25,851 nt of DNA from a virus (UHGV-0280754), one strand, 5' to 3'; numbered from the stretch's first letter, positions 2,122-25,851 are shown. Numbers and translations: made by a program. The notes: generated from the letters alone by a model not told the origin.

Positions 2122-2157
2122 TGACTCAACGATGGATAAATGCACTCGTTAAATAAA

Positions 2158-5183: not shown

Positions 5184-5200
5184 TAATTAATTATTAAATT

Positions 5201-5572: not shown

Positions 5573-5574
5573 AC

Positions 5575-7424: not shown

Positions 7425-7426
7425 AC

Positions 7427-9553
7427 ATGGCAGAGACATTAGAGAAAAAACATGAGCGGATCATGCTCAGGTTTGACCGCGCCTATTCTCCACAGAAGGA
7501 AGTGCGCGAAAAGTGCATTGAAGCTACGAGGTTTGCTCGTGTCCCCGGAGGTCAATGGGAAGGAGCAACGGCGGCTGGAACTAAGCTTGATGAGCAGTTC
7601 GAGAAGTATCCTAAGTTTGAAATCAATAAGGTAGCAACTGAACTTAACCGCATCATTGCAGAATACCGCAATAACAGAATCACCGTTAAGTTTCGTCCTG
7701 GTGACAGAGAGGCAAGCGAAGAGTTAGCCAATAAATTAAATGGTCTGTTCCGTGCTGACTACGAAGAAACTGATGGCGGTGAGGCTTGCGATAATGCATT
7801 TGACGACGCTGCTACTGGTGGTTTCGGTTGCTTCCGTTTGACGTCGATGCTGGTCAATGAATACGACCCCATGGACGATCGTCAGCGTATTGCTATTGAA
7901 CCAATATACGACCCGTCGCGCTCTGTGTGGTTTGACCCTGACGCTAAGAAGTACGACAAATCTGACGCGTTGTGGGCGTTCTGTATGTATTCGTTGTCAC
8001 CAGAAAAATATGAGGCTGAATACGGAAAGAAACCTCCTACTTCTCTGGATGTAACGTCTATGACCAGTTGGGAATATAACTGGTTTGGTGCAGATGTTAT
8101 TTACATAGCGAAGTATTACGAAGTTCGTAAAGAGTCTGTTGACGTCATCAGTTATCGACATCCAATCACTGGAGAGATTGCAACATACGACAGTGATCAG
8201 GTTGAAGATATTGAAGATGAACTGGCAATAGCTGGATTTCAGGAAGTGGCAAGGCGCTCAGTGAAGCGCCGTCGTGTGTATGTATCCGTAGTGGATGGTG
8301 ATGGTTTCCTTGAGAAACCTCGACGTATTCCTGGTGAGCATATCCCCCTCATCCCGGTTTATGGAAAACGCTGGTTCATTGATGACATTGAGCGTGTCGA
8401 AGGGCACATTGCAAAAGCAATGGATCCACAGCGTTTGTACAACCTTCAGGTTTCAATGCTGGCTGATACTGCAGCGCAAGACCCCGGTCAGATCCCTATA
8501 GTTGGCATGGAGCAAATTCGTGGACTTGAGAAGCACTGGGAGGCTCGCAACAAGAAACGCCCAGCGTTCTTGCCGTTGCGCGAAGTGAGAGATAAATCTG
8601 GCAACATTATCGCTGGAGCTACCCCGGCAGGATATACACAGCCTGCGGTTATGAATCAGGCATTGGCTGCATTACTACAGCAAACCAGTGCTGATATTCA
8701 GGAGGTTACAGGCGGCAGTCAGGCCATGCAGCAGATGCCAAGTAATATTGCTCAGGAAACGGTTAACAACTTGATGAACAGAGCAGATATGGCTTCGTTT
8801 ATCTATCTGGACAATATGGCGAAAAGTCTTAAACGCGCTGGTGAAGTATGGCTGTCAATGGCGCGTGAAGTGTACGGTTCAGAACGTGAAGTGCGCATCG
8901 TTAACGAAGATGGAAGTGATGATATCGCTGTCCTGAGCGCACAGGTTGTTGACAGGCAAACAGGGGCTGTTGTTGCGTTAAATGACCTTTCTGTCGGTCG
9001 ATACGATGTGACGGTTGATGTTGGACCAAGCTACACAGCACGACGTGATGCAACGGTTTCTGTACTGACAAATGTCCTTAGCTCTATGCTTCCAACAGAC
9101 CCAATGCGCCAGGCAATTCAGGGTATTATTCTGGACAATATCGATGGCGAAGGCCTTGATGACTTCAAAGAGTACAACCGAAACCAACTGCTGATATCTG
9201 GTATTGCAAAACCACGCAATGAGAAAGAGCAGCAGATTGTTCAACAGGCGCAAATGGCAGCACAAAGCCAGCCAAATCCTGAAATGGTTCTCGCTCAGGC
9301 GCAAATGGTAGCAGCGCAGGCAGAAGCGCAAAAAGCAACTAACGAAACTGCTCAAACTCAAATCAAAGCATTTACTGCCCAGCAGGATGCGATGGAGAGT
9401 CAGGCAAACACTGTCTATAAACTGGCTCAAGCCAGAAACATCGATGACAAAGCAGTGATGGAGGTAATACGCCTTCTGAAAGATGTCGCCGAGTCACAAC
9501 AACAGCAATTCCAGTCACCACCACAGTCACCGGCAGACTTAATGCCGAGTTAA
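7427..9553 (+). CDS. Portal protein (708 aa from ATG 7427; ORF-track frame opens at 7355)
   Basis: Large protein directly after the terminase with a long Q/A-rich helical C-terminal tail, as in P22/Sf6 portals; start chosen at the first ATG after the terminase stop, start uncertain. Confidence 0.85.
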   Translation: MAETLEKKHERIMLRFDRAYSPQKEVREKCIEATRFARVPGGQWEGATAAGTKLDEQFEKYPKFEINKVATELNRIIAEYRNNRITVKFRPGDREASEELANKLNGLFRADYEETDGGEACDNAFDDAATGGFGCFRLTSMLVNEYDPMDDRQRIAIEPIYDPSRSVWFDPDAKKYDKSDALWAFCMYSLSPEKYEAEYGKKPPTSLDVTSMTSWEYNWFGADVIYIAKYYEVRKESVDVISYRHPITGEIATYDSDQVEDIEDELAIAGFQEVARRSVKRRRVYVSVVDGDGFLEKPRRIPGEHIPLIPVYGKRWFIDDIERVEGHIAKAMDPQRLYNLQVSMLADTAAQDPGQIPIVGMEQIRGLEKHWEARNKKRPAFLPLREVRDKSGNIIAGATPAGYTQPAVMNQALAALLQQTSADIQEVTGGSQAMQQMPSNIAQETVNNLMNRADMASFIYLDNMAKSLKRAGEVWLSMAREVYGSEREVRIVNEDGSDDIAVLSAQVVDRQTGAVVALNDLSVGRYDVTVDVGPSYTARRDATVSVLTNVLSSMLPTDPMRQAIQGIILDNIDGEGLDDFKEYNRNQLLISGIAKPRNEKEQQIVQQAQMAAQSQPNPEMVLAQAQMVAAQAEAQKATNETAQTQIKAFTAQQDAMESQANTVYKLAQARNIDDKAVMEVIRLLKDVAESQQQQFQSPPQSPADLMPS

Positions 9554-9566
9554 CCAGGAGTAATCA

Positions 9567-10451
9567 ATGGAAAACGAACTGATCATCGACGGTCAGGTTA
9601 TTGACCTGTCTGAAACACAGGAAAATGCAGAAGAAACCATCATCCAAACAGAGTCACAGCCTGAGAATGAAAGCCAGGATGACAACGGTAAAGAGGTGGC
9701 AACTGAGCCTGAAAAAACCGAAGAGACACCAGAAGATTACGCCTTGCGTATTGGTGATGAAGAAATTCAGCTTAACGCTGACGATGATGATCACATTGAC
9801 GGGCAACCTGCACCGCAATGGGTGAAAGATCTTCGCAAAGGCTTCAAAGAAACACAGAAAGAAAACCGTGAGTTGCGCCGCCAGCTTGAGGAAGCATTAG
9901 CCAAGCCTGCGGAACATCAGCAACCACAACCAGATGCTATTCCACCAAAACCGACTCTTGAGTCGTGTGATTATGACGAACAGGCGTTTGAACAGGCATT
10001 GACTGATTGGCATGAGAAAAAAGGCCGTGTCGAACAGCAGCAGCAACAAAAACTACGTCAGCAACAGGAATACCAACAGCGTTTCCAGCAAAGGGTAGAA
10101 GCGCATAAACAACGGGCAGCCAAACTTCCTGTGAAAGATTATCAGGAAATGGAGGCCATTGTTCTTAGTGAGCTACCACCAATTCAGCAGGAAATCATCA
10201 TTCACTGTGCAGACGAAGGCTCTGAACTACTCGCCTATGGCTTAGGTAAGAGCCAGCAATTACGCCAGCGTGTAGCCGCTGAGACAGATCCAATTCGCGC
10301 AGCATTCCTCTTGGGGCAGATTAGCAAACAGGTAAGCCTTGCTCCAAAACCAAAGAAAGCCATCAAGCCAGAGCCGGAAGTACGTGGTGGCGGTGCTGAT
10401 GCGAAACAAGACGAATTCAACAAATTATGCCCCGGCGCAAAAATCGAATAA
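9567..10451 (+). CDS. Scaffolding protein (294 aa)
   Basis: AGGAG upstream; highly acidic N-terminus, Q/E/R-rich helical middle, basic C-terminal helix-turn-helix-like end; located between portal and coat as P22 gp8 is. Confidence 0.8.
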   Translation: MENELIIDGQVIDLSETQENAEETIIQTESQPENESQDDNGKEVATEPEKTEETPEDYALRIGDEEIQLNADDDDHIDGQPAPQWVKDLRKGFKETQKENRELRRQLEEALAKPAEHQQPQPDAIPPKPTLESCDYDEQAFEQALTDWHEKKGRVEQQQQQKLRQQQEYQQRFQQRVEAHKQRAAKLPVKDYQEMEAIVLSELPPIQQEIIIHCADEGSELLAYGLGKSQQLRQRVAAETDPIRAAFLLGQISKQVSLAPKPKKAIKPEPEVRGGGADAKQDEFNKLCPGAKIE

Positions 10452-10462
10452 GGAAAAGATAA

Positions 10463-11734
10463 ATGCCTAACAATCTCGACAGTAACGTCAGTCAAATCGT
10501 TCTGAAAAAATTCCTTCCGGGTTTTATGTCAGATTTAGTTCTGGCGAAAACCGTAGACCGTCAGTTGCTGGCAGGTGAAATCAACTCCAGCACTGGCGAT
10601 AGCGTTAGCTTTAAACGTCCGCATCAATTCTCATCCCTCCGTACTCCCACTGGTGATATTTCAGGGAAAAATAAAAACAACCTGATCTCAGGTAAAGCTA
10701 CGGGGCGTGTAGGTAACTACATCACTGTTGCTGTTGAATATCAGCAACTGGAGGAAGCGATCAAGCTTAACCAACTGGAAGAAATTCTCGCGCCGGTTCG
10801 CCAGCGAATCGTTACCGACCTTGAAACAGAGCTTGCTCACTTCATGATGAATAACGGTGCGTTGTCACTTGGTAGCCCCAATACTCCAATCACCAAATGG
10901 TCTGATGTTGCGCAGACGGCATCTTTCCTGAAAGACCTCGGCGTTAATGAAGGTGAAAACTATGCTGTAATGGATCCATGGTCTGCACAGCGACTTGCTG
11001 ATGCGCAGACTGGTTTGCACGCTTCAGATCAATTGGTTCGTACTGCATGGGAGAATGCGCAGATTCCAACCAATTTTGGCGGCATTCGCGCACTGATGTC
11101 TAATGGGCTTGCCTCTCGTACGCAGGGGGCATTTGGAGGAACACTGACAGTCAAAACACAGCCAACTGTTACCTATAACGCAGTTAAAGACTCATACCAG
11201 TTCACTGTAACATTGACCGGAGCGACAGCCAGCGTTACAGGTTTTCTGAAAGCTGGTGATCAGGTTAAATTCACCAATACCTACTGGCTGCAACAGCAGA
11301 CCAAACAGGCGTTGTATAACGGAGCCACACCAATTAGCTTCACTGCAACGGTTACTGCTGATGCTAATTCAGACAGCGGTGGCGATGTGACGGTTACGCT
11401 TTCTGGTGTTCCGATTTATGACACTACAAACCCGCAGTACAACTCTGTAAGTCGTCAGGTAGCGGCAGGCGATGCCGTATCTGTAGTAGGCACTGCTAGC
11501 CAGACAATGAAGCCAAACCTGTTCTATAACAAGTTCTTCTGTGGACTTGGCTCTATCCCACTGCCGAAACTGCACAGTATTGATTCTGCTGTTGCAACAT
11601 ATGAAGGTTTCTCCATCCGCGTACATAAATACGCAGATGGCGATGCCAACGTGCAAAAAATGCGCTTCGACTTACTGCCTGCATATGTGTGCTTTAACCC
11701 TCACATGGGCGGTCAGTTCTTCGGTAATCCGTAA
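10463..11734 (+). CDS. Major coat protein (423 aa), P22/Sf6-type
   Basis: AAGGA upstream; size matches Sf6 coat (423 aa, from memory); followed by a strong terminator as is typical for P22-like coat genes. Confidence 0.9.
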   Translation: MPNNLDSNVSQIVLKKFLPGFMSDLVLAKTVDRQLLAGEINSSTGDSVSFKRPHQFSSLRTPTGDISGKNKNNLISGKATGRVGNYITVAVEYQQLEEAIKLNQLEEILAPVRQRIVTDLETELAHFMMNNGALSLGSPNTPITKWSDVAQTASFLKDLGVNEGENYAVMDPWSAQRLADAQTGLHASDQLVRTAWENAQIPTNFGGIRALMSNGLASRTQGAFGGTLTVKTQPTVTYNAVKDSYQFTVTLTGATASVTGFLKAGDQVKFTNTYWLQQQTKQALYNGATPISFTATVTADANSDSGGDVTVTLSGVPIYDTTNPQYNSVSRQVAAGDAVSVVGTASQTMKPNLFYNKFFCGLGSIPLPKLHSIDSAVATYEGFSIRVHKYADGDANVQKMRFDLLPAYVCFNPHMGGQFFGNP

Positions 11735-11739
11735 TAACA

Positions 11740-11758
11740 AGGGGCTTACGCCCCTTTT
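11740..11758 (+). terminator. Intrinsic terminator after the coat gene
   Basis: Stem AGGGGC / GCCCCT with TTAC loop (11740-11755) followed by TTTT. Confidence 0.6.
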
Positions 11759-11776
11759 ATGTTTTAAGGAAACAAT

Positions 11777-11962
11777 ATGGATCGCATGAGTGTATTCCTT
11801 GCCGCAGATAACGAATCCGGGCATGTACAGGCCGTTATCGCAGAAAAAGACTTCCAGTTTTTCGAAAAGTTGGGCTTTGTTGCCTCAGTTGATGAATTGA
11901 AACCGACCAGTAAGCGAGCTCGTAAGGCGTTAGACAATGGCAACAGTACTGACAAAGGGTGA
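11777..11962 (+). CDS. Hypothetical small protein (61 aa) between coat and gp4-like gene
   Basis: AAGGA 5 nt upstream of ATG; overlaps the next gene by 26 nt; P22-like genomes have a small ORF in this position. Confidence 0.5.
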   Translation: MDRMSVFLAADNESGHVQAVIAEKDFQFFEKLGFVASVDELKPTSKRARKALDNGNSTDKG

Positions 11963-12419
11963 GATCGTCCTTTTTGCGCTTCGTAAGTTTGCTATTGCTT
12001 CTAATGCATCGCTGACTGATGTTGAGCCGCAATCAATTGAAGATGGTGTAAATGATCTGGAAGATATGATGTCCGAGTGGATGATTAACCCCGGCGACAT
12101 TGGTTACGCTTTCGCAACTGGAGATGAGCAGCCATTACCAGATGATGAGTCAGGTCTTCCAAGAAAATACAAACACGCAGTAGGCTATCAGTTATTGCTG
12201 AGAATGCTATCTGATTACAGCCTTGAACCAACTCCGCAAGTTCTCAGTAACGCCCAACGCTCATATGATGCCTTGATGACCGACACTCTGGTTGTTCCTT
12301 CAATGCGACGACGTGGAGATTTTCCTGTAGGGCAGGGTAATAAATATGACGTGTTCACATCTGACCGATATTATCCAGGCGATCTCCCTCTGATTGATGG
12401 CGATATCCCAAACGCATAG
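11937..12419 (+). CDS. gp4-like head-to-tail adaptor protein (160 aa)
   Basis: N-terminus [18 protein letters not shown]...[24 protein letters not shown] aligns by eye with P22 gp4 ([43 protein letters not shown], from memory). Confidence 0.85.
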   Translation: [160 protein letters not shown]

Positions 12420-12427
12420 GTGAATAA

Positions 12428-13846
12428 ATGCCGATTCAGCAACTTCCGCTTATGAAAGGTGTCGGCAAAGACTTTCGAAACGCCGACTATATCGACTATC
12501 TGCCAGTGAATATGTTGGCTACACCCAAAGAAATCCTGAACAGCAGCGGATATCTTCGCTCATTCCCGGGCATTGCCAAACGTTCTGATGTGAACGGTGT
12601 ATCGCGCGGAGTCGAGTACAACATGGCGCAGAATGCTGTTTATCGTGTCTGTGGTGGCAAGCTTTACAAAGGCGAAAGCGAAGTCGGTGACGTCGCCGGA
12701 AGTGGTCGCGTATCAATGGCACATGGTCGGACATCTCAGGCTGTAGGCGTTAATGGTCAACTGGTCGAGTATCGCTATGATGGCACGGTTAAAACCGTCT
12801 CAAACTGGCCTGCAGACAGCGGATTTACGCAGTATGAGTTAGGTTCTGTTCGCGACATTACGCGTTTACGTGGGCGTTATGCGTGGTCAAAAGACGGCAC
12901 TGATTCATGGTTTATCACTGACCTTGAAGACGAATCGCATCCTGACCGTTACAGCGCACAATATCGTGCCGAGTCTCAGCCGGACGGCATCATCGGTATC
13001 GGCACATGGCGAGACTTCATCGTCTGCTTTGGTTCATCGACGATTGAATATTTCTCCCTGACTGGTGCAACCACCGTTGGTGCTGCTTTGTATGTCGCAC
13101 AGCCATCACTGATGGTGCAGAAAGGCATTGCCGGGACTTACTGCAAAACGCCGTTTGCTGACTCGTATGCGTTCATCAGCAATCCGGCAACAGGTGCGCC
13201 GTCTGTATACATCATCGGCTCCGGTCAGGTATCACCAATCGCCAGCGCGAGCATTGAGAAAATACTACGCTCCTACACTGCTGATGAACTGGCTGAAGGC
13301 GTGATGGAATCGCTGCGGTTTGATGCGCATGAGTTGCTGATTATCCATCTTCCGCGCCATGTTCTCGTATACGACGCATCTTCAAGCGCCAATGGTCCGC
13401 AATGGTGTGTATTGAAAACAGGCCTGTATGACGATGTGTACCGCGCTATCGACTTCATTTACGAAGGCAATCAGATAACGTGCGGCGATAAGCTGGAATC
13501 GGTGATCGGGAAATTGCAGTTCGATATCAGCAGCCAGTACGACAAGCAACAGGAACACCTGCTGTTTACTCCGTTGTTCAAAGCGGATAACGCCAGATGC
13601 TTTGATCTGGAGGTGGAATCATCGACTGGTGTTGCGCAGTATGCTGACCGCCTGTTCCTCTCTGCAACCACTGACGGCATAAATTACGGTCGTGAGCAGA
13701 TGATTGAGCAGAATGAACCGTTCGTTTACGACAAACGCGTTTTGTGGAAGAAAGTAGGGCGCATCAGGAAAAACATTGGCTTCAAATTGCGCGTTATCAC
13801 TAAGTCACCTGTCACTCTGTCTGGCTGCCAGATAAGGATTGAGTAA
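12428..13846 (+). CDS. gp10-like tail hub / tail accessory protein (472 aa)
   Basis: Same length as P22 gp10 (472 aa, from memory) and same position between gp4 and the tail needle. Confidence 0.8.
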
Positions 13847-14547
13847 TGGCGGATTCATCACTGAATAATCCTGTCGCGGTTCAGGCTACGCGCCTTGATG
13901 CTTCAATTTTGCCACGCAATATATTCAGCCAGTCTTACCTGCTGTATGTCATAAATCAGGGAGCTGATGTCGGCGCAATTGCCGGGAAGGCAAATCAGGC
14001 TGGTCAGGGCGCTTACGATGCCCAGGTAAAAAACGATGAACAGGATGTCGAACTGGCTGATCACGACGCAAGAATCACCGCAAACACAAAAGCGATAAAT
14101 CTCCTTGAGGTCAGGTTAACAACCGCCGAAGGGAAGATAGTCGTACTGCGTAGCGATGTTGATTACTTGCTGGATGAGGTTATCGATATTCAGGGGCATC
14201 TGGTCACTGTTGACCAAAGACTGGATGACGTAGAAAACGATGTCTCTGGCATTAAGAGTGATTACGTATCGAAAACCGTAACAGAATCGCAGTCTCTTGC
14301 GTCACCGCTGGATGTAAAAACATCATATTCAGTTGATGGAATTCAGGTAGTTGGAGCAAGGCAGACTGGATGGACTGCAGCCACAGGTACGCCACTTCTT
14401 GGCTCATTCAACGCAAACCAGTCATACACTGTCGGCACTACGTACACGCAATCCGAAGTCGCAGCTCTCGCAACAGGTTTGCAGCAGGCGCGGCAGCGTA
14501 TTCTGGCGCTTGAAACGGCACTTAGATTACATGGGCTGATTGACTGA
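13846..14547 (+). CDS. gp26-like tail needle (233 aa, trimeric coiled coil)
   Basis: N-terminus [36 protein letters not shown] and C-terminal ...ALRLHGLID match P22 gp26 from memory; same length. Confidence 0.92.
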
Positions 14548-15002
14548 TGATTACATTCAAACCAACGCGAAACATCGACCTGATAGAAGCCGTAGGAAAT
14601 CACCCTGACATTATCGCCGGTAGCAACAACGGCGATGGATACGACTACAAACCTGAATGCCGTTACTTTGAGGTGAACGTGCACGGGCAGTTTGGCGGCA
14701 TTGTTTACTATCAGGAGATTCAGCCGCAGACATTCGATTGCCACGCCATGTACCTGCCAGAGATTCGCGGCTTCAGCAAGGAAATCGGTCTGGCGTTCTG
14801 GCTATACATTCTGACTAACACCACCGTTCAGTGCGTCACATCGTTCGCCGCACGCAAATTCCGCCACGGGCAGATGTACTGCGCAATGATTGGCCTTAAG
14901 CGTGTAGGAACCATCAAGAAATACTTCAAAGGCGTGGATGACGTAACGTTTTACAGCGCCACACGCGAAGAACTAATCGACTTCCTGAATCACGGGAGAT
15001 AG
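14547..15002 (+). CDS. gp14-like head assembly / ejection-associated protein (151 aa)
   Basis: Assigned by position between the tail needle and gp7-like gene (P22 order 26-14-7-20-16); sequence itself not recognised. Confidence 0.55.
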   Translation: MITFKPTRNIDLIEAVGNHPDIIAGSNNGDGYDYKPECRYFEVNVHGQFGGIVYYQEIQPQTFDCHAMYLPEIRGFSKEIGLAFWLYILTNTTVQCVTSFAARKFRHGQMYCAMIGLKRVGTIKKYFKGVDDVTFYSATREELIDFLNHGR

Positions 15003-15004
15003 CC

Positions 15005-15697
15005 ATGTTATATGCATTTAAGCTGGGCAGAAAACTGCGCGGCGAGGAACCTTATTGCCCTGAAAAGGGTGGGAAAGGTGGCAGCTCTGATAAAAGCGCA
15101 AAGTATGCCGCAGAAGCTCAGAAGTATGCAGCAGACCTGCAAAATCAGCAGTTCAACACCATCATGAACAACCTGAAGCCGTTTACTCCTCTGGCTGAGA
15201 AGTATGTCGGCAGCCTCGAGAACTTATCGTCTCTGGAGGGGCAAGTTCAGGCACTTAACCAGTATTACAACTCTCAGCAGTATAAAGACCTTGCAGGTCA
15301 GGCTCGCTATCAGAGTCTGGCGGCAGCGGAAGCAACAGGTGGATTGGGTTCCACCGCAACCAGTAATCAGTTAGCAACAATCGCACCAACGCTTGGTCAG
15401 CAATGGCTATCTGGACAAATGAACAATTACAACAACCTGGCAAATATCGGTCTTGGCGCTCTTCAGGGACAGGCAAACGCCGGGCAAACATATGCCAACA
15501 ACATGAGTCAGATTTCGCAGCAAAGCGCAGCACTGGCGGCGGCAAACGCCAACCGACCGTCAGCATTGCAGCAGGGTGTTAGTGGTGCTGCATCCGGTGC
15601 GCTTTTGGGTGGTGGCATAGCCAGTGCTCTCGAGCTATCAACTCCGTGGGGGGCTGGTATTGGTGCTGGTCTTGGTCTGCTTGGTTCACTGTTTTAA
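15005..15697 (+). CDS. gp7-like ejection protein (230 aa)
   Basis: N-terminus MLYAFKLGRKLRGEEPYCPEKGGKGGSSDKSAKYAAEAQKYAADLQNQQF and Gly/Ala-rich C-terminus resemble P22 gp7 from memory. Confidence 0.8.
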   Translation: MLYAFKLGRKLRGEEPYCPEKGGKGGSSDKSAKYAAEAQKYAADLQNQQFNTIMNNLKPFTPLAEKYVGSLENLSSLEGQVQALNQYYNSQQYKDLAGQARYQSLAAAEATGGLGSTATSNQLATIAPTLGQQWLSGQMNNYNNLANIGLGALQGQANAGQTYANNMSQISQQSAALAAANANRPSALQQGVSGAASGALLGGGIASALELSTPWGAGIGAGLGLLGSLF

Positions 15698-15707
15698 GGG
15701 TTAATCA

Positions 15708-17057
15708 ATGGCTACGTGGCAACAGGGTATTAATTCTGGTGGTTTTCTGGCTGGCATTGGTACGCAAAATGAGAATGCACCAAAGGCAAGCGACATTAAC
15801 GCAACGCTTGGTCTGATTCGCGAAAACAATGAACTGGCTCGATCAGGTGCAAATAACGTTGGTCTGACCGCGTTACGTGGTCTGGCTGGAGTTGCTGATA
15901 TTTACAATCAGGAACAGCAACAGAAAGCGATTAGTGCGTTCAATAAGGTTCACGCTGATGCATGGGCTTCTGGTGATACATCGGGACTATTTAAGTTTGC
16001 CCAGGAAAATCCAGCGTTTGTTGCACAGGCACAACAGGCGTTTTCCGGTCTTAATGAGCAGCAACGCAACGATATGGGAGATTTAGCCATGAGGGCTAAC
16101 GTCGCTCTTTCTCAGGGACCGGAAGCCTACAGTAAATTCATTACTGACAACAAGGACAGGTTAAATCGCGTGGGCGCGAATGCTGACTGGATGATTCAGA
16201 CAGGTATCCAGAATCCAGAGCAGCTATCACACATGCTGACTACTATGTCTCTCGGTGCGCTTGGACCAGAAAAGGCGTTTGCTGTTCAGGACAAGATGGT
16301 TGGTCGCCAGCAGGAGCAGCAAAGAATTAACGAAACCATTCGCAATAATGACATGACGAATGCGAGGGCTATTAGGGGGCAGGATCTTTCCTATAAGGCT
16401 CAAATGGCAAGACTGAATCACGACAAGTATGTGTTTAAGCAGTCACAGGCGGCCCTTGAAAGAGCAGGACAACTTCAGGATATGGATGTTTTGTCTCTTA
16501 ACTCACAGATAGCAGCGACGGGAATTGATCCTCTAACCGGTAAAGCTGCAACGTCAGCCAGAATGTCTCAGGCTAAGAGATGGCTTGATGGCAACAATAA
16601 TTACAACAATGCGTTGATTACTGGTGAGCGAGGGATAGAGAAAATAGATTCTTTGCTTGGTAAGAAGGATCTTGAAGGTATCGGTCGCTTCGAAGGAAGA
16701 AATATAGATGGCTTCACAAGTGCTGAAGGGCTTGCAAACCGTAATGCGATAGAAGAATTAAAGTCGGGTGCGTTTGTCCAGAACGTGCAGACTATGCGAG
16801 GTATGGGTAGCCTCTCCAATGCTGAAGGACAAAAACTGGAAAACCTTATCGCGAAACTCGATATAACACAGCCTGAAGAGGTCGTCAGAAAACAGTTATC
16901 TGAAATCCGATCGCAATATTCTGTATTTCAAAAGGTTGCAGCAAGGGAGGCTGAATCAATGGGATATAGTTCATCAGGTTATGACACATATGTTAGTGAG
17001 CGAAAATCAGGAAGCGACAGCAATAAGTCCGGTTTCTCGTCTTTATGGGGTGATTAA
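15708..17057 (+). CDS. gp20-like ejection protein (449 aa)
   Basis: Position and size comparable to P22 gp20; low-complexity Gly/Ala/Gln-rich composition typical of ejection proteins. Confidence 0.7.
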
Positions 17058-19225
17058 TGGCTAAAGCATGGAAAGATGTTATCGCTTCTCCACAGTATCA
17101 GGCGTTAACTGAAGAACAGAAAGCACAGGCTCAAGCGCAATATTTTGATGAGGTTGTTGCCCCTAAGGCTGGTGACAAATGGGCTGAAGCAAGAGATCAG
17201 TTTTATGCAGCATACCCTCCGCCTCAGCAGCAGAAAGAAGAACCATCATTGATGCAACAAGCTGGTGATTGGCTCACAGGTGGTCAAAGTGCAGGGCAAA
17301 TTGCAGAACAGGCTGGTCGTGGTCTGGTAAACATACCATTTGACGTATTGCAGGGTGGCGCAAGTCTGATTAATGCAATCAGCCAGGGGCTTGGCGGCCC
17401 CAAGGTTTTGGATGATGTTTATCGCCCTGTCGATCGACCGACAGACCCTTGGGCGCAAGCCGGTGAAACATTTGGTGGGTATCTCCTGCCAATTGGCACA
17501 GCGGCAAAAGTTGCTGGAGCGCCAGCAAAGCTCGCAGGAGACATCGGTTCCGCAGGAAACATGATTGCAGGTTCTCTTGCTGATGCTGCAAATCAGGAGG
17601 GCGACTTTGCACAAAATGCTGCCATTAACGGTGGTATCAATATTGGTGCTCAGGGGATACTTTCTGGGGCTGGAAGGATCTTAACCTCTAAATCACCTCA
17701 AGTTCTTGGTGGCGGGGCAATAAATTCCGCTGCTGATGTTTCGAAAATGGCAAAGTCTGGTACAGGAAGAGAGATTATTGCCAGACAGTCAGCTAATGTG
17801 TCAGACGAAATAGCAAAAGCAGCAGATACTGCTGGAATAGATATCAACGCATTAACTCCTGGCATGAGATCAGGTAGTCGTGGTCTTGCTCAGGCGGAGG
17901 GGATTCTGGCGTCAAAGCCCGGAATTACACAGGATGCACACACCAAAGCATTCAGTGAAATAGAGTCGAAATTTAACTCAGCATTGGATGAGTTTGGGGC
18001 TGAAGCAGGAACTGCATCAGAAAAAAGTGCAGCCATAAAACAAAGGGTTTTGGCAAGTATTGATAAAATGAAAAATTCAGAAAAGGCCGCATGGGATAGC
18101 GTCCGCTCCACGATGCCTGACGCAAAGGCCAGAATGTCAAACCTGAACGCTACAATTCAGGGTGATATTTTGGCTGGCATGCCGCTAACTCCTGAGATGA
18201 AACAATTCGCATCTGCTTATGCTAAAACTGGTAAAAAAGGAATCACGTTTGATGCCATGAAGGCATGGCGAAGTAAACTTGCTGACGCAGAGCAGAAGTA
18301 TATAAGGTCTGGTGAGGCAAATACGGCAAGGCGCATGGCTGAGCTTCGTGATGCAGCAACGGAAGATATGCGCATAATGGCTCAAAATGGCGGTTTTCTT
18401 GATGACTGGCAAAAAGCTAATGATCTGTCAAAGGCAAGATTTACAGCACAAGAACAGGCTGAAGCAGCGTTTGGTAGAGACCTTGCAACTGATCAGTTGG
18501 TAACTAATGGATCTAAGGCGTTACAGGGTTCAGCAAAAAGTGGAACAGGTCAGTTCCATAAAATAATAAGCGCCCTACCTGAGTCGGAACGCGCGCCAGC
18601 AATTGCATCAATATTACAAGATGCAATGTCGCAAGGGGTACGCGGAGGTAAGTCTGAAGAGGCTGGAATTAAGCATATCGCGACTATTCTTACCCCACAA
18701 AACGTGAAGGCAATTAGTCGATATTCTCCAGAACTTGGCAGGATTACAAGTTCATACGGAGAACTTGCACGAGCAGCAACAAAGCCACTTCGATATATTG
18801 AACAGACAGGGCGATCTATGCCAGCCATTAGCACTCTTGAGAATGGCCTTCATCCAGTTTTAGAGAGCGCATTGTCTGGCGCTTTTAGAACTACTGGCAC
18901 TATCGCAGGGTTCTCTGGAGGAGGCGTTATTGGAGCAATAGCGGGTGGCGCTGCAGGTGGGGCAATTGATGCAATGGCAAAAGGAGCGATAGCGAAATTA
19001 TCCGCAACTAGAAGCGGTCGTTACGCTATTGAAAAGGCTGTTCAAGAGGCAACAAAGGCAGTTAAGGTTGGGGCAAGTGATGGTGCATTAGCGGCGGCGG
19101 AACGCAGATTTATGGCAAATAAGGCCGCCGTAAAAGCAATACGCGAGGCACTAGGAAACGAAGAGTTCCAGCGTTTAGCAAGAGCTGGAATTGTGGCATC
19201 GCTAAGCGGAATGGCACAGGAGTAA
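17057..19225 (+). CDS. gp16-like ejection protein (722 aa)
   Basis: Position after the gp20-like gene (ATGA overlap); Gly/Ala-rich with predicted amphipathic segments; longer than P22 gp16 as I remember it. Confidence 0.7.
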
Positions 19226-19555
19226 TTAGTCATCCATGGATGGATTGAGCTTATCTCGTGTTGATGTGGCAATTTTCCCAACATTTTTCAACCAAGATTT
19301 TAAGAAGGATATGTCGTCCTTAATATCATGAATATCCTCATTCTTTATACGATCAACCTTATCCTCTAAGCTCTCTATAGAACGCTCAATGCTAGACAGA
19401 GAGATTTTTAAGTCCCCTTGCTCACGTTCCAGTGAGGATTTGAGAGCACAATATTCGTTTTCTAGAATTCCTATTTTTTTTGTTAGAGAGTGCATTCGAT
19501 ACTCATACACCAAACCAGAAACGACTAATGCAGCCAACAGAAACCATTCAAGCAC
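19226..19555 (-). CDS. Small membrane-anchored coiled-coil protein (109 aa), GTG start; positional analogue of sieA
   Basis: Minus-strand ORF with AAGGAGG 5 nt upstream of GTG; N-terminal hydrophobic helix LEWFLLAALVVSGLVY then heptad-rich acidic coiled coil; its stop abuts the gp16-like stop with zero intergenic bases. Confidence 0.6.
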   Translation of the reverse strand: MLEWFLLAALVVSGLVYEYRMHSLTKKIGILENEYCALKSSLEREQGDLKISLSSIERSIESLEDKVDRIKNEDIHDIKDDISFLKSWLKNVGKIATSTRDKLNPSMDD

Positions 19556-19929
19556 ACCAACCTCCTTAGTTTTGCTCAGGATACCAGATGATACTTTATT
19601 GGTGGAGTGGTGTGTGAAAACGTGTCAACGACAAACCATCCACAACTTGGACGAATGATTTAGCAAAAAGTGCTATTTTTGGTGTTTGGTGTCATAGAAA
19701 AGTGAATAGCTCACTTTTCAACATTGCATGAAACTTGCAGGAAATGTGACATTACCTTATAGGTAACTTCGGCGAAAATGCAGTAAATGTGAAACGTAAT
19801 GGTTTAAACATGTCGCTAAAGTGGTTGTAAGTTAGCCTCCGAAGGATTGCTGATAGCTTTGTTATAGTATTAAATGACATTTGACATAGTTGGATACTTA
19901 GCTGTGGCTATCAAGATGGAGGTGTGTTC

Positions 19930-20373
19930 ATGCTTACTTGTTTTGATGTCGCCGACTACTTCCTGTCGCGGTGTGACGAGGATAGCGGTGACGCAATCTC
20001 TAATTTAAAATTACAAAAGCTTGTTTACTATGCTCAGGGTTTTTCATTGGCGTTGCTTGGCGAGCCTCTTTTTCAGAATAAGATGGAAGCTTGGATGCAT
20101 GGCCCTGTTGTCCCTGAGCTTTATCACCGTTATAAACAATATGGTAATGGTGCTATCCCTTCTCCAGAGTCTTTTGATGCTGAAAAATTCAGCGAAGAAC
20201 AGTTAGAGCTATTAGAAGAAGTCTGGGATGTTTTTGGGCAATTTTCTGCCTGGAAACTGAGGAACATGACACACGAAGAGTCACCATGGAGATCAAACTA
20301 TATTGAGGGTGTTGGTGGTTCTGAAATTAGTTCTAAGGAGATGGCAGAGTACTTTGCAACTCGGATTAACTAA
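19930..20373 (+). CDS. Panacea (DUF4065, SocA/GepA-like) domain protein (147 aa)
   Basis: GGAGGT 6 nt upstream of ATG 19930 (ORF-track entry starts at GTG 19924); motifs NLKLQKLVYYAQGF and EAWMHGPVVPELY are what I remember as hallmarks of the Panacea/COG3600 family; AT-rich relative to flanks. Confidence 0.75.
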   Translation: MLTCFDVADYFLSRCDEDSGDAISNLKLQKLVYYAQGFSLALLGEPLFQNKMEAWMHGPVVPELYHRYKQYGNGAIPSPESFDAEKFSEEQLELLEEVWDVFGQFSAWKLRNMTHEESPWRSNYIEGVGGSEISSKEMAEYFATRIN

Positions 20374-20377
20374 CGAG

Positions 20378-20797
20378 ATGGCAAGAAAATCTAAAAGGAT
20401 TATCCCCCCTGCTGAATCTACAGGTAAGTTAAAGTTAGGGCCGCAGTCAGGGGGGAATTCAGATCAAAAGAAACCGAAATTTTCATTCTGTTACATCCAA
20501 AGCTCTCACTGCATAACGAAATGCCAAAAAGATGAGAAAGCTGGCTTAGCTGATAAATTATACAGATTAAGTCAACTAACATGGGCAGATATTAAGCAGC
20601 AAGGTAGGCATAAGCTTGGATTTGAGAAGATTGCAAGGGGTGCAATTAAAGCAGGTATCCCCAGTCATATAACGGAAGACGTAGATCATTTCTTGGCTTT
20701 TAGATTTGATGATTTGAAAGCCATGGTTGGTTATCGTCTTGGATCGACATTTTTTGTTATATGGCTTGATAGAGAGTTCAACCTATACAAGCACTAA
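20378..20797 (+). CDS. Unrecognised 139-aa protein translationally coupled to the Panacea gene (candidate toxin/effector partner)
   Basis: ATG 4 nt after the Panacea stop; basic Pro/Gly-rich N-terminus (MARKSKRIIPPAESTGKLKLGPQSGG), Cys/His cluster (CYIQSSHCITKC), C-terminal GYRLGSTFFVIWLDREFNLYKH; the ORF-track start at 20303 is an out-of-frame overlap extension and was not used. Confidence 0.6.
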   Translation: MARKSKRIIPPAESTGKLKLGPQSGGNSDQKKPKFSFCYIQSSHCITKCQKDEKAGLADKLYRLSQLTWADIKQQGRHKLGFEKIARGAIKAGIPSHITEDVDHFLAFRFDDLKAMVGYRLGSTFFVIWLDREFNLYKH

Positions 20798-20825
20798 TAA
20801 AACCCACCGTCAGGTGGGTTTTTTG
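20797..20825. terminator. Bidirectional intrinsic terminator between the convergent partner gene and mnt
   Basis: A-run (20797-20800), stem AACCCACC (20801-20808) / GGTGGGTT (20813-20820), loop GTCA, T-run (20821-20825); the mnt stop codon lies inside the hairpin. Confidence 0.65.
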
Positions 20826-21061
20826 TACAAATCCTTCAGCGTATCAAACACCATCTTCCTAACAAGTTCGGACTGCTCATCAGCGATGCGTTCTGCATCG
20901 TCTCGATAGCCTGCAATCGGTGATGGTTTTGATAGCGCATCCTGAACGATTTGTAATAACTCTGAGTTCATTGACCTTCCGTTAGCCTCTGCTCTTAATT
21001 TCAATTTTTCTCTTACTTCCAAAGGCATACGGAAGTTAAAGTGCGGATCGTCTCTAGCCAT
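20810..21061 (-). CDS. mnt: Mnt repressor (ribbon-helix-helix, 83 aa)
   Basis: Product MARDDPHFNFRMPLEVREKLKLRAEANGRSMNSELLQIVQDALSKPSP... matches P22 Mnt nearly residue for residue as I recall it; same length. Confidence 0.92.
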   Translation of the reverse strand: MARDDPHFNFRMPLEVREKLKLRAEANGRSMNSELLQIVQDALSKPSPIAGYRDDAERIADEQSELVRKMVFDTLKDLYKKPT

Positions 21062-21084
21062 GCCATCACTCCAAGTTAGTATCT

Positions 21085-21342
21085 CTAACTTTCGTCTTTA
21101 TTGTTGCTATACATGCATTTCAACTTCTCAACATCATGTTCAAGATCTATCAATCGTGATGCTATAGTTGCAAGGTCTAGTGCTTGAATGTGTTTATTTT
21201 TTTCGGTCCATGCTTCAAGTGCCGCGACCATCTCAGCATTTAATGAACGAGAATTAGCCTCAGCCAGTTCAATAAGACGTTCCTTTATCTCTACAGGAAG
21301 CCTCAGATTCACTTGAGGGTTTTTGTACTTACGATCAGACAT
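21085..21342 (-). CDS. Second Mnt/Arc-family ribbon-helix-helix protein with C-terminal coiled coil (85 aa from ATG 21342; GTG 21348 also possible)
   Basis: RHH signature NLRLPVEIKERLIELAEANSRSLNAEMVAAL; AGGA 7 nt upstream of the ATG on the minus strand; directly upstream of and co-oriented with mnt (23-bp gap). Confidence 0.75.
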   Translation of the reverse strand: MSDRKYKNPQVNLRLPVEIKERLIELAEANSRSLNAEMVAALEAWTEKNKHIQALDLATIASRLIDLEHDVEKLKCMYSNNKDES

Positions 21343-21388
21343 CGGCACATCCTGAATAATTTTTTACCACAGGATATGTAGGTATCTA

Positions 21389-21417
21389 TTGACTATCAAT
21401 GCGTACCTAAATACTAT
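21389..21417 (+). promoter_or_regulatory. Pant-like rightward promoter: -35 TTGACT (21389-21394), 17-bp spacer, -10 TACTAT (21412-21417)
   Basis: Near-consensus hexamers with optimal spacing about 30 bp upstream of arc; overlapping palindrome TGTATG-N7-CATACA (21417-21435) and direct repeats ATGCGTACC (21399-21407, 21420-21428). Confidence 0.55.
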
Positions 21418-21447
21418 GTATGCGTACCACATACAACGGAGGATGCA

Positions 21448-21588
21448 ATGAAGGTAAAAACACTGCGTATGCCAGAGAAGTTAGAAAAAATCCTTGAAGA
21501 GAAAGCAAAGGAAGAGTGTCGCTCATTTAGTGCAGAAGTAATTAAACGGGTGATGGACAGCCTGAAGAGAGAGGGGATAACGGTATGA
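21448..21588 (+). CDS. arc: Arc-like ribbon-helix-helix repressor (46 aa)
   Basis: Hand translation MKVKTLRMPEKLEKILEEKAKEECRSFSAEVIKRVMDSLKREGITV aligns with P22 Arc (…PREVLDLVRKVAEENGRSVNSEIYQRVMESFKKEGRIGA, from memory); GGAGG 5 nt upstream; below the ORF-track size cut-off. Confidence 0.8.
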   Translation: MKVKTLRMPEKLEKILEEKAKEECRSFSAEVIKRVMDSLKREGITV

Positions 21589-21788
21589 GTAAAGAATGTT
21601 GTTTCTGCGGCATTAGCGAATCAGACGCTGATCAAACATACATTTACTCTAAAGAAACAGGTCGGATGCTGTGTAGTGACTGCGTGTTGGACATCATAAG
21701 ATACAAGCATCTTGGATGTTCTGCCAGCATTAGCAATATAGGTGAAGTATATGAAGGGAAAGATATAACTGATAGAGCAGAAAGTTGA
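21585..21788 (+). CDS. Small Cys-rich protein (67 aa), putative zinc-ribbon, between arc and ant
   Basis: ATGA overlap with arc stop; Cys pattern CCFCG ... CSDC; no family recognised. Confidence 0.5.
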   Translation: MSKECCFCGISESDADQTYIYSKETGRMLCSDCVLDIIRYKHLGCSASISNIGEVYEGKDITDRAES

Positions 21789-21851
21789 AGCCCCAACTGC
21801 GGTAACAGTCAGGGCTTCGGTATCGTAAAACCACGCATAGGAATTAACGAC
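21778..21851 (-). ncRNA. Putative sar-like small antisense RNA covering the ant ribosome-binding site and start codon
   Basis: Minus-strand promoter inside the ant 5' end: -35 TTGATA (complement of 21881-21886), 17-bp spacer, -10 TATACT (complement of 21858-21863); about 70 nt downstream on that strand lies a hairpin (21787-21818) followed by a U-rich tract; arrangement matches P22 sar (from memory). Confidence 0.4.
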
Positions 21852-22775
21852 ATGAAAAGTATAGCAACAGCAGTATCTACTATCAATGTACCATTCCACG
21901 GCGCAGAGCTTTATGTTGTCAATCACAACGGTGAGCCGTACACCCCAATGAAACCTATCGTTGAGGGAATGGGTATGGATTGGGCTTCACAGTTTACAAA
22001 GTTAAAACAAAGATTTGCTAAAGGTATTGTGGAAATCGCAATACCTTCAGTTGGCGGTGTGCAGAACATGATTTGCCTTGCTTTACGTAAACTTAATGGC
22101 TGGTTGCAAACCATCAGTCCTAACAAAGTCCGCCCTGAAATCCGCGACAATGTAATCCAGTATCAAGAAGAGTGTGACGATGTGCTATACGAGTACTGGA
22201 CTAAAGGCCATGTAGTTAACCCACGCAAAGCTAAAAAGGCGTTGCCGGGTAAAATCACCACTGAGCAGCAGGAAGCCATTAAACAACTCGTCATGAGTCG
22301 CGGTCAGTCTCTGCCAAAAGAAAAACAGGCTAAGGCGATGATCACCATGTGGTCGTCACTGAAATCCCATTTTGGATGTTCGTACAAAGAAATCAGTGAG
22401 GAGCAGTTTACCGAAGCACTGTCACTTGCAGCTCGAGTTCCACTTGAAGGTGAGTTCATTGGCAAACAAGAGAAGAAAACCGACGAGCTTTCTGCAAAAG
22501 AAGCAAACAGCCTTGTATGGTTATGGGATTATGCCAACCGCTCACAGGCATTATTCCGCGAACTGTATCCGGCGCTAAAACAAATTCAATCGAACTATTC
22601 CGGCAGATGCTACGACTACGGTCATGAATTCTCGTATGTTATCGGAATGGCGAGAGATGTTTTAATTAATCACACACGAGATGTTGATATCAATGAGCCA
22701 GACGGACCAACGAATCTTTCCGCATGGATGAGACTTAAGAATAAAGAATTACCTCCTTCAGTACATAACTACTGA
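21852..22775 (+). CDS. ant: Antirepressor Ant (307 aa)
   Basis: Position after arc and before the tailspike as in the P22 immI region; size close to P22 Ant; N-terminal region resembles the P22 antirepressor N-terminal domain from memory. Confidence 0.8.
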   Translation: MKSIATAVSTINVPFHGAELYVVNHNGEPYTPMKPIVEGMGMDWASQFTKLKQRFAKGIVEIAIPSVGGVQNMICLALRKLNGWLQTISPNKVRPEIRDNVIQYQEECDDVLYEYWTKGHVVNPRKAKKALPGKITTEQQEAIKQLVMSRGQSLPKEKQAKAMITMWSSLKSHFGCSYKEISEEQFTEALSLAARVPLEGEFIGKQEKKTDELSAKEANSLVWLWDYANRSQALFRELYPALKQIQSNYSGRCYDYGHEFSYVIGMARDVLINHTRDVDINEPDGPTNLSAWMRLKNKELPPSVHNY

Positions 22776-22794
22776 CAGATAACCAACGCAACGA

Positions 22795-22817
22795 CCCAGC
22801 TTCGGCTGGGTTTTTTT
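22795..22817 (+). terminator. Intrinsic terminator after ant
   Basis: Stem CCCAGC (22795-22800) / GCTGGG (22805-22810) with TTCG tetraloop followed by seven T (22811-22817). Confidence 0.7.
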
Positions 22818-22875: not shown

Positions 22876-25527
22876 ATGACAGACATTACAGCCAATGTGA
22901 TTGTATCGATGCCTTCTCAACTCTTCACTATGGCGCGTTCTTTTAAAGCCGTAGCCAATGGCGAAATTTATATCGGGAAAATTGACACTGACCCGGTAAA
23001 TCCTGAAAACCGGGTTCAGGTTTATGTAGAGAACGAAGACGGCTCTCGCGTTCCTGTTTCGCAACCAATCATCATTAACGCTGCTGGATATCCGGTATAT
23101 AACGGACAGATTGCCAAATTCGTAACCGTGCAAGGCCATTCTATGGCTGTTTACGATGCTTATGGGGCGCAGCAGTTCTATTTTCCAAACATTCTGAAAT
23201 ATGATCCTGATCAGTTTAAACAAGAACTAGAGAATAAGTTTAACAATGGTTCAACTCCATCAATTATAAATTATAAGTACGGTCTTCCAGAAGAAGTAGA
23301 CGGAGCAACACAAAGGACGCTACAGGATAAACTTGATGACCATGTAAATGTTCGCGATTTTGGTGCAAAAGGGGATGGCATTACTGACGATACAGACGCA
23401 ATAACAAATGCCATCATTTACTGCGCATCTAACGGAAAACGCCTGAAGTGGGATTCTGGTGTGTATTTGATTAGCCGCATAAAATGCGGCGGGGATAATT
23501 ATAACTATGACTGGGTAGCTGATGGCAAGGTTGTCTTAAAGTCAACCGCAAAAGAGCCTCTTGGTCCAAACTGGATTGATGATTATTTCATAAGACTCGA
23601 AGGTGGAGATGCCACGCCAATTGACTATAATTCAACAATAAATCCTGGTGACACATCAATATCAATTAACTCAGCATATTCTGTTGATGCAGGCGATATA
23701 ATTATGATTCATGGCAATCGCTTAATTCAGACAGATAATAGAGGACAGGCTTGTGAAGGTGAAATGCATGTTGTTACTGCTTTTGATAATGCAACAAAAA
23801 AAGCGGAGATATCAGGTGCATTTTATTTTTTCTACTCTGCGAGCAATGATTACTCAACGACCGTAACAGCATCTGTATCCGGAGGTGAATTCTCATTTGG
23901 TAATGATGCAACATTAACAAAACAATACAATCAGGTAAAAGTAACAGGTGTCACCGGAGCTAACGCCGGAATATCAAGATACATAACTCATTGGGATTAC
24001 GACACTAAAACAGCAAAATTTGAATATGCTCAGGGACCATTCCCGTTTAAACCATCTGTTGGAGACGTGTTTAAAATCACAAGAAAGGCAAATATATATA
24101 AAAGAAAACCATGCTACGGCAGAATTGTCGGTGATTTCAATTTTGAAAGACCTGTCACGCAGAACGCATCTCCTGGTGATTTGGGGTTCCGTGGTCTTGT
24201 GATAGATGGCGCTGTTGATATGCATATAGAAGGAATAAAACTAATCGGCTTTTCAGAAACTGGAATTTTTCTTGAGTCATGCTACAGAACGAAAATAATA
24301 GAACCATATATTGAATACTCAAACCGTGCATATGATTTAACAAACGGCACTGGTTATGGTGTTGAAATATACAATAGCAGCTATTGCACAGTCGTGGATA
24401 TGATAGCATTTGCTTGCAGGAGGGGGCTTGATGTAAGCGGGACTCAAATGGTATCACTGTATAATAACATTATAAATCCAACGATGATTGGTGGTGGAAC
24501 TGCATATGATGGAGTTAAATTTTTCCCTGATGGCGATACAAGAAATTCATGTTGCGGTGGACACGGCCCATCATACGAAACAACTTTTACAGGCGGAAAT
24601 TCAGTCAATTTGTATTATGCTGGTGTAATACGCGGATTAAATGAAGTGTATGATGGAATGAACGCCAGGGGATTTAGCGGCCCGGCTCCTTTTTTTGTAA
24701 GATATAGTGGTGGTGGGTTCACGATTCAGAACTGTAATTATATTGATGGTTTTACTGAGATGTCTTTGCCATACAACTTGAGGTACAAACCTGTGAATGC
24801 AACTCAACGTAATCACAGACCTCTTGTTTTTATTGAAACAACTCTGGCACAGACAGACAGAAACTCTTACTATAAAGAACTTCCTGTTGTTATTAAGAAT
24901 AATACCGCAAGGACTGTTCTCAAGGGCTTTTTACGTTTTGAGGTTAATGATGGCCTCACCCCTCTAATCCAAAATATTTATTTTGGTGGTAATTTATGCA
25001 TGGCGAACCCAGAAACATCAGATTCTGTATCAGGGCAAACAGAGGCAGTAATGGTTTATTCATCTGTTCCTGGTGCAATAATTGTTCGAAATTTCCATGA
25101 TCTTGGCGGTAACAGAATTGTTCCTGTTGGAGCAGGATACAGATACTGCGGTATGTTCAACACGCCAGATGGAATAGCAGGAACAATAGTTCAACCAGAC
25201 GGAAAATATCTAATAACACTTGAAGCAAACAAATCTACAAGTATCCTTGTTGGTGGATACGTCCCATGTGTTCGCCTTGATATGCACGACATACTTGATA
25301 TTCATGGGGTAATTGCAGTTGGTGTTCTTATTCATCGTGGTGAGGCAATTGATTTTTCTCCTTTAAAAGAAATTAATAAGCAAAATGTTGTATTGAAAAC
25401 CGGAGTTCTTTCAGATAATGATGGTGATGAAAATAACTTAAATATTTCGTTTGACTTTGCAACCATATATTTAAGCAACAAGATGCCAAATAAGATTCAA
25501 CTATCTATTGAAGTATCAGGAGTGTAA
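22876..25527 (+). CDS. Tailspike protein (883 aa): P22-type N-terminal head-binding domain plus right-handed beta-helix (pectate-lyase-fold) receptor-binding/glycanase body
   Basis: Residues 1-~110 (MTDITANVIVSMPSQLFTMARSFKAVANGEIYIGKIDTDPVNPEN...VTVQGHSMAVYDAYG...LKYDPDQ) match the P22 gp9 N-terminal domain from memory; downstream NVRDFGAKGDGITDDTDAITNAI is the classic beta-helix glycosidase motif; GGAG upstream. Confidence 0.92.
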   Translation: MTDITANVIVSMPSQLFTMARSFKAVANGEIYIGKIDTDPVNPENRVQVYVENEDGSRVPVSQPIIINAAGYPVYNGQIAKFVTVQGHSMAVYDAYGAQQFYFPNILKYDPDQFKQELENKFNNGSTPSIINYKYGLPEEVDGATQRTLQDKLDDHVNVRDFGAKGDGITDDTDAITNAIIYCASNGKRLKWDSGVYLISRIKCGGDNYNYDWVADGKVVLKSTAKEPLGPNWIDDYFIRLEGGDATPIDYNSTINPGDTSISINSAYSVDAGDIIMIHGNRLIQTDNRGQACEGEMHVVTAFDNATKKAEISGAFYFFYSASNDYSTTVTASVSGGEFSFGNDATLTKQYNQVKVTGVTGANAGISRYITHWDYDTKTAKFEYAQGPFPFKPSVGDVFKITRKANIYKRKPCYGRIVGDFNFERPVTQNASPGDLGFRGLVIDGAVDMHIEGIKLIGFSETGIFLESCYRTKIIEPYIEYSNRAYDLTNGTGYGVEIYNSSYCTVVDMIAFACRRGLDVSGTQMVSLYNNIINPTMIGGGTAYDGVKFFPDGDTRNSCCGGHGPSYETTFTGGNSVNLYYAGVIRGLNEVYDGMNARGFSGPAPFFVRYSGGGFTIQNCNYIDGFTEMSLPYNLRYKPVNATQRNHRPLVFIETTLAQTDRNSYYKELPVVIKNNTARTVLKGFLRFEVNDGLTPLIQNIYFGGNLCMANPETSDSVSGQTEAVMVYSSVPGAIIVRNFHDLGGNRIVPVGAGYRYCGMFNTPDGIAGTIVQPDGKYLITLEANKSTSILVGGYVPCVRLDMHDILDIHGVIAVGVLIHRGEAIDFSPLKEINKQNVVLKTGVLSDNDGDENNLNISFDFATIYLSNKMPNKIQLSIEVSGV

Positions 25528-25851
25528 ATGTATCAATTTGCTAAATTAAAAAAGGATAAAAATATGGATACAACACCAATAACACATGCAGTATGCGCGG
25601 TTATTGCGCAGATACTGGTTGGCCTTTCTACCGGAAACTGGGCTTACGGTGCGATAGCCGGTTGTACGTTCTTCATTGCGCGTGAACACACCCAGGCAGA
25701 ATATCGCTGGATAGAAAAGTTTGGGAAAGGGAAACGTATCAACCTGCCATGGTGGGGAGGTTTTGATCCACGCGTGTGGGATGTAGGAAGTCTGTTGGAT
25801 TTTTGTTTCCCAATTATCGGATGCTTATTGGTATGGATTCTTGCATCGTAG
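25528..25851 (+). CDS. Small membrane protein (107 aa, two predicted transmembrane helices), start coupled to the tailspike stop (TAAATG)
   Basis: Complete ORF ending with TAG at the window end; hydrophobic segments ITHAVCAVIAQILVGLSTGNWAYGAIAGCTFFIA and VGSLLDFCFPIIGCLLVWILAS; AGGAG upstream; no family recognised. Confidence 0.5.
   Translation: MYQFAKLKKDKNMDTTPITHAVCAVIAQILVGLSTGNWAYGAIAGCTFFIAREHTQAEYRWIEKFGKGKRINLPWWGGFDPRVWDVGSLLDFCFPIIGCLLVWILAS

Follow-up and report, generated by a model that had tools for sequence, protein, structure and literature searches.

A P22-type tailspike of phage UHGV-0280754 carries an exchanged beta-helix body whose hosts share a group 2 capsule locus

The tailspike gene of UHGV-0280754 joins a P22-type head-binding domain to a beta-helix body that is found behind a different type of adaptor in epsilon15-like prophages, and every complete Escherichia coli genome in which we detected this body carries the same infrequent group 2 capsule locus. 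The explanation that we favor, with a probability of roughly 0.7 for the whole, is that a body cassette imported onto a P22-type spike cleaves one specific capsule, KL53/KL93-like, probably as a lyase. Phages of this group commonly have mosaic tailspikes, and there is nothing new in the architecture: modular tailspikes and swaps of receptor-binding domains are documented in Lederberg- and Uetakeviruses, and exchange between the two groups through anchors ~124 and ~205 aa long has already been described (PMC10408124). The new element is a prediction, namely, the assignment of an uncharacterized body family to capsule depolymerases with a KL53/KL93-like target across unrelated O types.

Tailspike gene and phage context

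The window (the whole stretch of DNA that was analyzed, 25,851 nt) contains a tailspike ORF on the plus strand at exactly the coordinates given in an earlier note on this sequence (Table 1). Upstream of it, window positions 1 to 22875 are 96 to 97% identical to HK620 and vB_EcoP-611R6 over 76 to 77% of the length, and the ORF directly preceding the tailspike gene (21852 to 22775) contains the P22_AR_N and P22_AR_C antirepressor domains of Pfam. A tailspike position after the immI/antirepressor region is the one seen in P22-like (Lederbergvirus) genomes. Because of this backbone and this antirepressor neighbor, the gene is assigned as the tailspike of an HK620/Sf6-like (P22-type, Lederbergvirus) temperate phage, and the source phage is almost certainly a prophage.

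A terminator-like hairpin separates the antirepressor gene from the tailspike gene and falls in a stretch that the CUS-3 record labels boundary sequence "bsq1"; the number of such hairpins in the consensus scan was not above that in shuffled sequences, and this one is a candidate only. An antisense ORF of 135 aa (window positions 22816 to 23223, minus strand) overlaps the region coding for the head-binding domain and is most likely spurious.

Table 1. Features of the UHGV-0280754 tailspike region and GC content of selected segments
Feature	Window positions	Strand	GC	Remarks
Backbone	1..19000		0.483	
Region 19000-22000	19000..22000		~0.41	
Terminator-like hairpin	22793..22812	+		GACCCAGC-TTCG-GCTGGGTT then T run; consensus scan
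Tailspike ORF	22876..25527	+		883 aa, ATG start
Head-binding (particle-docking) domain	22876..23217	+	0.439	aa 1-114; Pfam PF09008, PDB and phage matches
Neck/linker, third mosaic piece	23218..23343	+	0.357	aa 115-156; nucleotide comparison
Beta-helix receptor-binding/depolymerase body (predicted)	23344..25527	+	0.388	aa 157-883; cap motif DFGAKGDGITDDT at 23356-23394
Exchanged cassette, body and most of next gene	23344..25803	+		99.35% nucleotide identity to KC-Dl-1 (L001), blastn
Last 182 nt of tailspike gene	25346..25527		0.28	
Small predicted membrane protein	25564..25851	+		95 aa from Met13 of 107-aa ORF 25528-25851; phrog_1443

The proposal that the first ~110 residues are of the P22 gp9 type was borne out. 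Pfam family PF09008 (Head_binding) matched aa 1 to 113 over its whole profile (E = 2.6e-64; 215 bits, with a cutoff of 24), and the domain shows 71% amino acid identity (80/113) to P22 gp9 and 88% (100/114) to Sf6 gp14, which is also its closest solved structure in a PDB search. The 667-aa P22 tailspike gp9 in the PDB was matched by phmmer only up to aa ~124 of the query. Among 50,697 phage records searched by megablast, HK620, CUS-3, N7, Sf6, and epsilon34 match the first 341 to 350 nt of the gene with 85 to 93% nucleotide identity; beyond nt ~350, no P22-like phage in these records shares the gene, and at most 13% of the gene is covered in any record.

Mosaic structure and the exchanged cassette

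Comparison with vB_EcoP-611R6 and CUS-3 in bins of 30 nt shows a drop from identities of 80 to 96% to identities of only 23 to 43% at gene nt ~345 to 360. This homology breakpoint corresponds to window positions ~23220 to 23235, in agreement with the breakpoint placed at about 23215 in the earlier note. The gene is, however, a mosaic of three pieces, a head-binding domain, a neck of ~42 aa, and a body, and not of two. The neck (nt ~345 to 468) is common neither to 611R6 and CUS-3 nor to the epsilon15-type protein described below; it is shared with the tailspike of the ECCWS199 type (L003), to which the nucleotide identity is 66 to 90% up to nt ~520. It resembles the neck of CBA120 TSP3 (PDB 6nw9, aa 114 to 197), and the confidence of the structural model is low in this part.

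Most of the tailspike gene is present in 10 of 5,426 complete E. coli genomes. Four of them carry the chimera, which is full-length in YP3, HB37, and 266917_2 (98.1 to 98.6% identity) and partial in strain 2452 (NZ_CP031833.1), where the match begins only at nt 184, pointing to a possible further recombination junction within the head-binding domain. The remaining six (KC-Dl-1, 1517k, KOr019, 7CC, 201609, and FDAARGOS_1268) carry the body only and match from nt 469 onward with 99.5% identity. There, the body lies within a 924-aa protein annotated as "glycosyl hydrolase family 28-related" and encoded by an epsilon15-like prophage that also has genes for an SLT transglycosylase and a core protein resembling T7 gp14. 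The N terminus of this protein is a 197-aa adaptor of the epsilon15/phiV10 type (71% to epsilon15 gp20 and 100% to phage ZX5), and the 883-aa and 924-aa proteins are 99% identical over aa 143 to 883.

The exchanged block extends beyond the stop codon of the tailspike gene into the next gene (Table 1). Its 5′ junction is in the DNA encoding VNVRDFGAKGDG, and its 3′ junction is inside the phrog_1443 gene. The occurrence of one body, 99% identical, behind different adaptors thus demonstrates the chimeric architecture and horizontal swap that had been claimed for this gene. The view of it as a two-part fusion stands insofar as a P22-type N terminus is mounted on a foreign body, but the neck makes a third piece and the exchange runs past the stop codon. 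The earlier note would have been contradicted by collinearity of the whole protein with a single known tailspike lacking a breakpoint; the collinear full-length copies in three other E. coli prophages are the same uncharacterized chimera and so do not contradict it.

Recombination between homologous sequences at two conserved anchors would be the likeliest mechanism by which the body cassette was gained, the 5′ anchor being the DNA that encodes the VNVRDFGAKGDG cap motif and the 3′ anchor the conserved small membrane-protein gene (phrog_1443).

Base composition

The body had also been described as markedly AT-rich, with a switch in composition at about 23215. GC content at third codon positions does fall from 0.42 in the head-binding part to 0.28 in the body (P = 0.004), and the body lies far below the phage backbone (0.483; P = 9e-19), but "markedly" is too strong a word: the overall GC content decreases only from 0.44 to 0.39, and with all bases the two parts differ weakly (Fisher P = 0.066). 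In a likelihood scan, the strongest change-point in the gene was at nt 2471 (window position 25346), where the AT-rich 3′ end starts. A composition model with a single breakpoint was rejected, as its best change-point falls at this 3′ end and not at the domain junction.

Upstream, the immI-like region with Arc/Mnt-type and antirepressor genes (window positions 19000 to 22000), which varies among related prophages, has a GC content of ~0.41 versus 0.48 in the structural genes.

Fold and family of the body

In an AF2 monomer model, aa 150 to 883 are confidently predicted (pLDDT mostly 85 to 97) and form a right-handed parallel beta-helix, the nearest structures of which are tailspikes. The cap motif of such beta-helices, recognized already in the earlier note, is located at aa 161 to 173 and is covered by a match to PF12708 (aa 157 to 185); these 29 residues are the only match of the body to a Pfam beta-helix family. 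The body was said to bear no likeness to the P22 endorhamnosidase, and this held at both levels: the phmmer match to P22 covers aa 1 to 124 only, and at the fold level the P22 tailspike ranks far below other tailspikes. The best structural neighbors of the body model are lyases. Among the lyase tailspikes, LKA1 gp49, phi297 gp61, AP22 gp54, the Klebsiella K1 lyase, and the K5 lyase share 12 to 18% identity with the body and have no sequence-profile match to it past the cap motif, and the body has ~180 further C-terminal residues in comparison with them.

In searches of solved structures in the PDB, the matches of the 883-aa protein and of a profile of 19 sequences were confined to the head-binding domain and the cap motif. 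Searching sequenced phages with the body by tblastn gave a coverage of at most 32%, the best match being the tailspike of Bacillus phage Mater (25% identity). The family to which the body belongs is small: a set of 5.8 billion clustered proteins contains ~21 full-length relatives, whose N termini are of the head-binding, T7-tail, or other types, and a set of 1.84 billion proteins contains 56 representative clusters at E values of 1e-30 or below. Its PHROGs entry is phrog_14558, "tail spike protein," and cluster P0001, considered below together with the epsilon15/phiV10-type tailspike, has 511 member sequences.

Invariant polar residues (D287, R289, N483/R484, R515/D519, H563, R586/E590, and Y622) are located on successive rungs of the modeled helix, and these rungs are where the substrate groove would be expected. 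No Pfam match to Peptidase_S74 was obtained in the tailspike, and of the endosialidase features only End_N_terminal appeared, below threshold (17 bits, with a cutoff of 26) and overlapping the cap motif. The body is presumably trimeric and would cleave a polysaccharide.

Association with a host capsule locus

Region 2 of the group 2 capsule cluster in KC-Dl-1 contains glf together with genes for an acyltransferase, a nucleotide-sugar dehydrogenase, two GT2 proteins, and two hypothetical proteins. With this region as the query (at least 80% coverage and at least 99% identity), it was detected in 40 of the 5,426 E. coli genomes (0.74%), and all ten hosts of the body are among these 40 (hypergeometric P = 1.4e-22; P = 3.7e-7 when just three of them are counted as independent). 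A second, divergent tailspike gave the same result: the ECCWS199-type gene is present in exactly four genomes (ECCWS199, LH10-b-1, LS45, and XH992), and all four belong to the same set of 40 (P = 2.5e-9). As the prophages adjoin ybhB/bioA, torT, and yfgI, three sites that are all far from kps, the association reflects host range and not linkage.

The 40 genomes contain two variants of the locus that differ essentially in the acyltransferase gene only. The two acyltransferases are 64% identical in amino acid sequence (L014 35204-35872 versus L015 9439-10092), and the rest of the locus shows at least 98.9% nucleotide identity, suggesting that they may represent two forms of one polysaccharide that differ in O-acetylation. 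Hosts with either variant of the locus carry the tailspike body. K53 and K93 capsules have a common GlcA-Galf backbone and differ in O-acetylation, which would fit both the gene content of the locus and its two variants. The target locus is provisionally designated KL53/KL93-like. In the supplement to a study of E. coli K-locus typing, K53 is the type given for ST457 isolates of O11 and for some ST12 isolates of O4:H5, and, among the reference loci given there, which include both KL53 and KL93, glf is present in only three (PMC13171598).

Two further observations concern individual hosts. The kpsM gene of KC-Dl-1 (L014 26788-27564) has an internal stop and is listed as a pseudogene, and this strain may therefore be acapsular, a plausible escape from a capsule-dependent phage. 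In 1517k, an IS110-family element connects dusC (~2.23 Mb on the K-12 map) with aqpZ (~0.91 Mb; L010 3292-6705), which indicates a large chromosomal rearrangement.

Target and chemistry

The earlier note had predicted specificity for a different surface polysaccharide. The genomic association refines this prediction to a group 2 capsule, most likely, and not the O antigen, since a single kps region 2 is common to all hosts, whereas their O-antigen clusters vary. The body could nevertheless act on the O antigen as an endoglycosidase of the kind known from P22, Sf6, and HK620, though for a new O serogroup, as an O-antigen target is the usual one for tailspikes of Lederberg- and Uetakeviruses (PMC10408124). 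KC-Dl-1 carries an O4-family O-antigen cluster, and the O4 wzx-wzy segment, although present in just 36 of the 5,426 genomes, occurs in two of the ten hosts (KC-Dl-1 and YP3), one for each phage type. It is missing from the other eight, however, and O4 specificity was rejected for this reason. Furthermore, 266917_2 has been typed as ST38 O51:H30 (PMC6963479), and 1517k belongs to ST457 (PMC8072826), a sequence type that appears as O11 in the typing supplement (PMC13171598). With the capsule locus in 10/10 hosts, and in 4/4 hosts of the divergent homologue, against 2/10 for O4, this genomic association makes an O-antigen target improbable. The association with the capsule could also be an indirect one, caused by shared ancestry, a shared niche, or targeting of another surface structure, or the capsule could be bound without being cleaved. 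Several hosts are possibly clonal (for example, those of ST457), the counts are small, and the candidates compared were one capsule locus and one O-antigen cluster. Still, no fewer than three unrelated backgrounds are represented among the hosts (ST38, ST457, and an O4 strain with a pks island), the body is carried by two phage backbones at three integration sites, and a divergent homologue repeats the pattern in four more genomes, for a locus with a frequency of 0.74%; we regard such an indirect origin, too, as unlikely.

For a capsule-cleaving body, the chemistry is the least certain step. Beta-elimination at a uronic acid, i.e., a lyase reaction, is the probable one, because the fold neighbors of the body are lyases and the sugar dehydrogenase of the host locus implies a uronic acid, which a lyase could attack. 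RefSeq annotates the epsilon15-type homologue as GH28-type, and a glycoside hydrolase of this type acting on the same target is a serious possibility, albeit one that we do not favor: the GH28 domain PF00295 (Glyco_hydro_28) gave no match to the body even at E values up to 1, and the PF12708 match is confined to the residues around the cap motif. The structural neighbors and the implied uronic acid likewise speak for the lyase.

Proposed function

In the capsule-depolymerase model, the head-binding domain (aa 1 to 114) would attach the spike to the tail, as its P22 and Sf6 counterparts do, and the body would most likely recognize and cleave one specific group 2 capsular polysaccharide. This polysaccharide would be the product of kps region 2, with its UDP-galactopyranose mutase, nucleotide-sugar dehydrogenase, acyltransferase, and glycosyltransferases, and by cleaving it the virion could bore its way through the capsular layer and reach the outer membrane. 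K53 and K93 are missing from the many K specificities covered in a review of capsule depolymerases of E. coli (PMC12488582), and we found no enzyme for the K53/K93 capsule in the literature searched. We propose, tentatively and with somewhat less than even confidence, that phrog_14558 is the first depolymerase for a capsule of the E. coli K53/K93 type, a lyase with an active site unlike those of solved tailspikes, on a cassette circulating between P22-like and epsilon15-like prophages of ExPEC (ST12, ST38, and ST457). If the capsule specificity is confirmed, the enzyme could be used to type and decapsulate strains of lineages such as ST457, ST12, and ST38, and the phage would be the second P22-like prophage, after CUS-3, to target a capsule.

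Comparison with known tailspikes

The tailspike shares with those of HK620, Sf6, and P22 (gp9/gp14) the head-binding domain (71 to 88% amino acid identity), the gene position after the antirepressor in a backbone 96 to 97% identical, and the general plan, in which a neck connects a docking domain with a beta-helix body. The bodies, in contrast, have no sequence relation (the match ends at aa ~124), and whereas HK620, Sf6, and P22 have O-antigen endoglycosidases, the body described here tracks a capsule locus across differing O types. A capsule-specific module also follows the head-binding domain (92.7% nucleotide identity over nt 1 to 341) in CUS-3, a P22-like prophage of E. coli K1, and the two parts are joined there at the same position as in UHGV-0280754. 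The CUS-3 body, however, is an endosialidase for K1 polysialic acid, while ours is a beta-helix of another family with a proposed KL53/KL93-like target.

The epsilon15/phiV10-type (Uetakevirus) prophage tailspike WP_250997070 (with cluster P0001) is 99% identical to the body over aa 157 to 883, and its prophage also has the phrog_1443 gene downstream, within the same block of 99.35% nucleotide identity. It differs in the 197-aa adaptor (71% to epsilon15 gp20) and consequently mounts on a different virion. The ECCWS199-type P22-like tailspike (WP_181026751, L003 4001-6604; 867 aa versus 883 aa) has the same head-binding domain and neck (86% nucleotide identity to nt ~520) and a collinear body of the same family that is only ~30% identical, in hosts with the same capsule locus.

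Downstream gene

The small protein encoded downstream of the tailspike belongs to family phrog_1443 (E = 4e-52) and has no Pfam match; in YP3 and 266917_2, its gene is annotated with a length of 288 nt. This gene lies inside the block of 99.35% identity and may be the 3′ recombination anchor. Its homologues (77 to 88%) are located 3′ of tailspike or tail-fiber genes in P22-like, epsilon15-like, and lambdoid phages.
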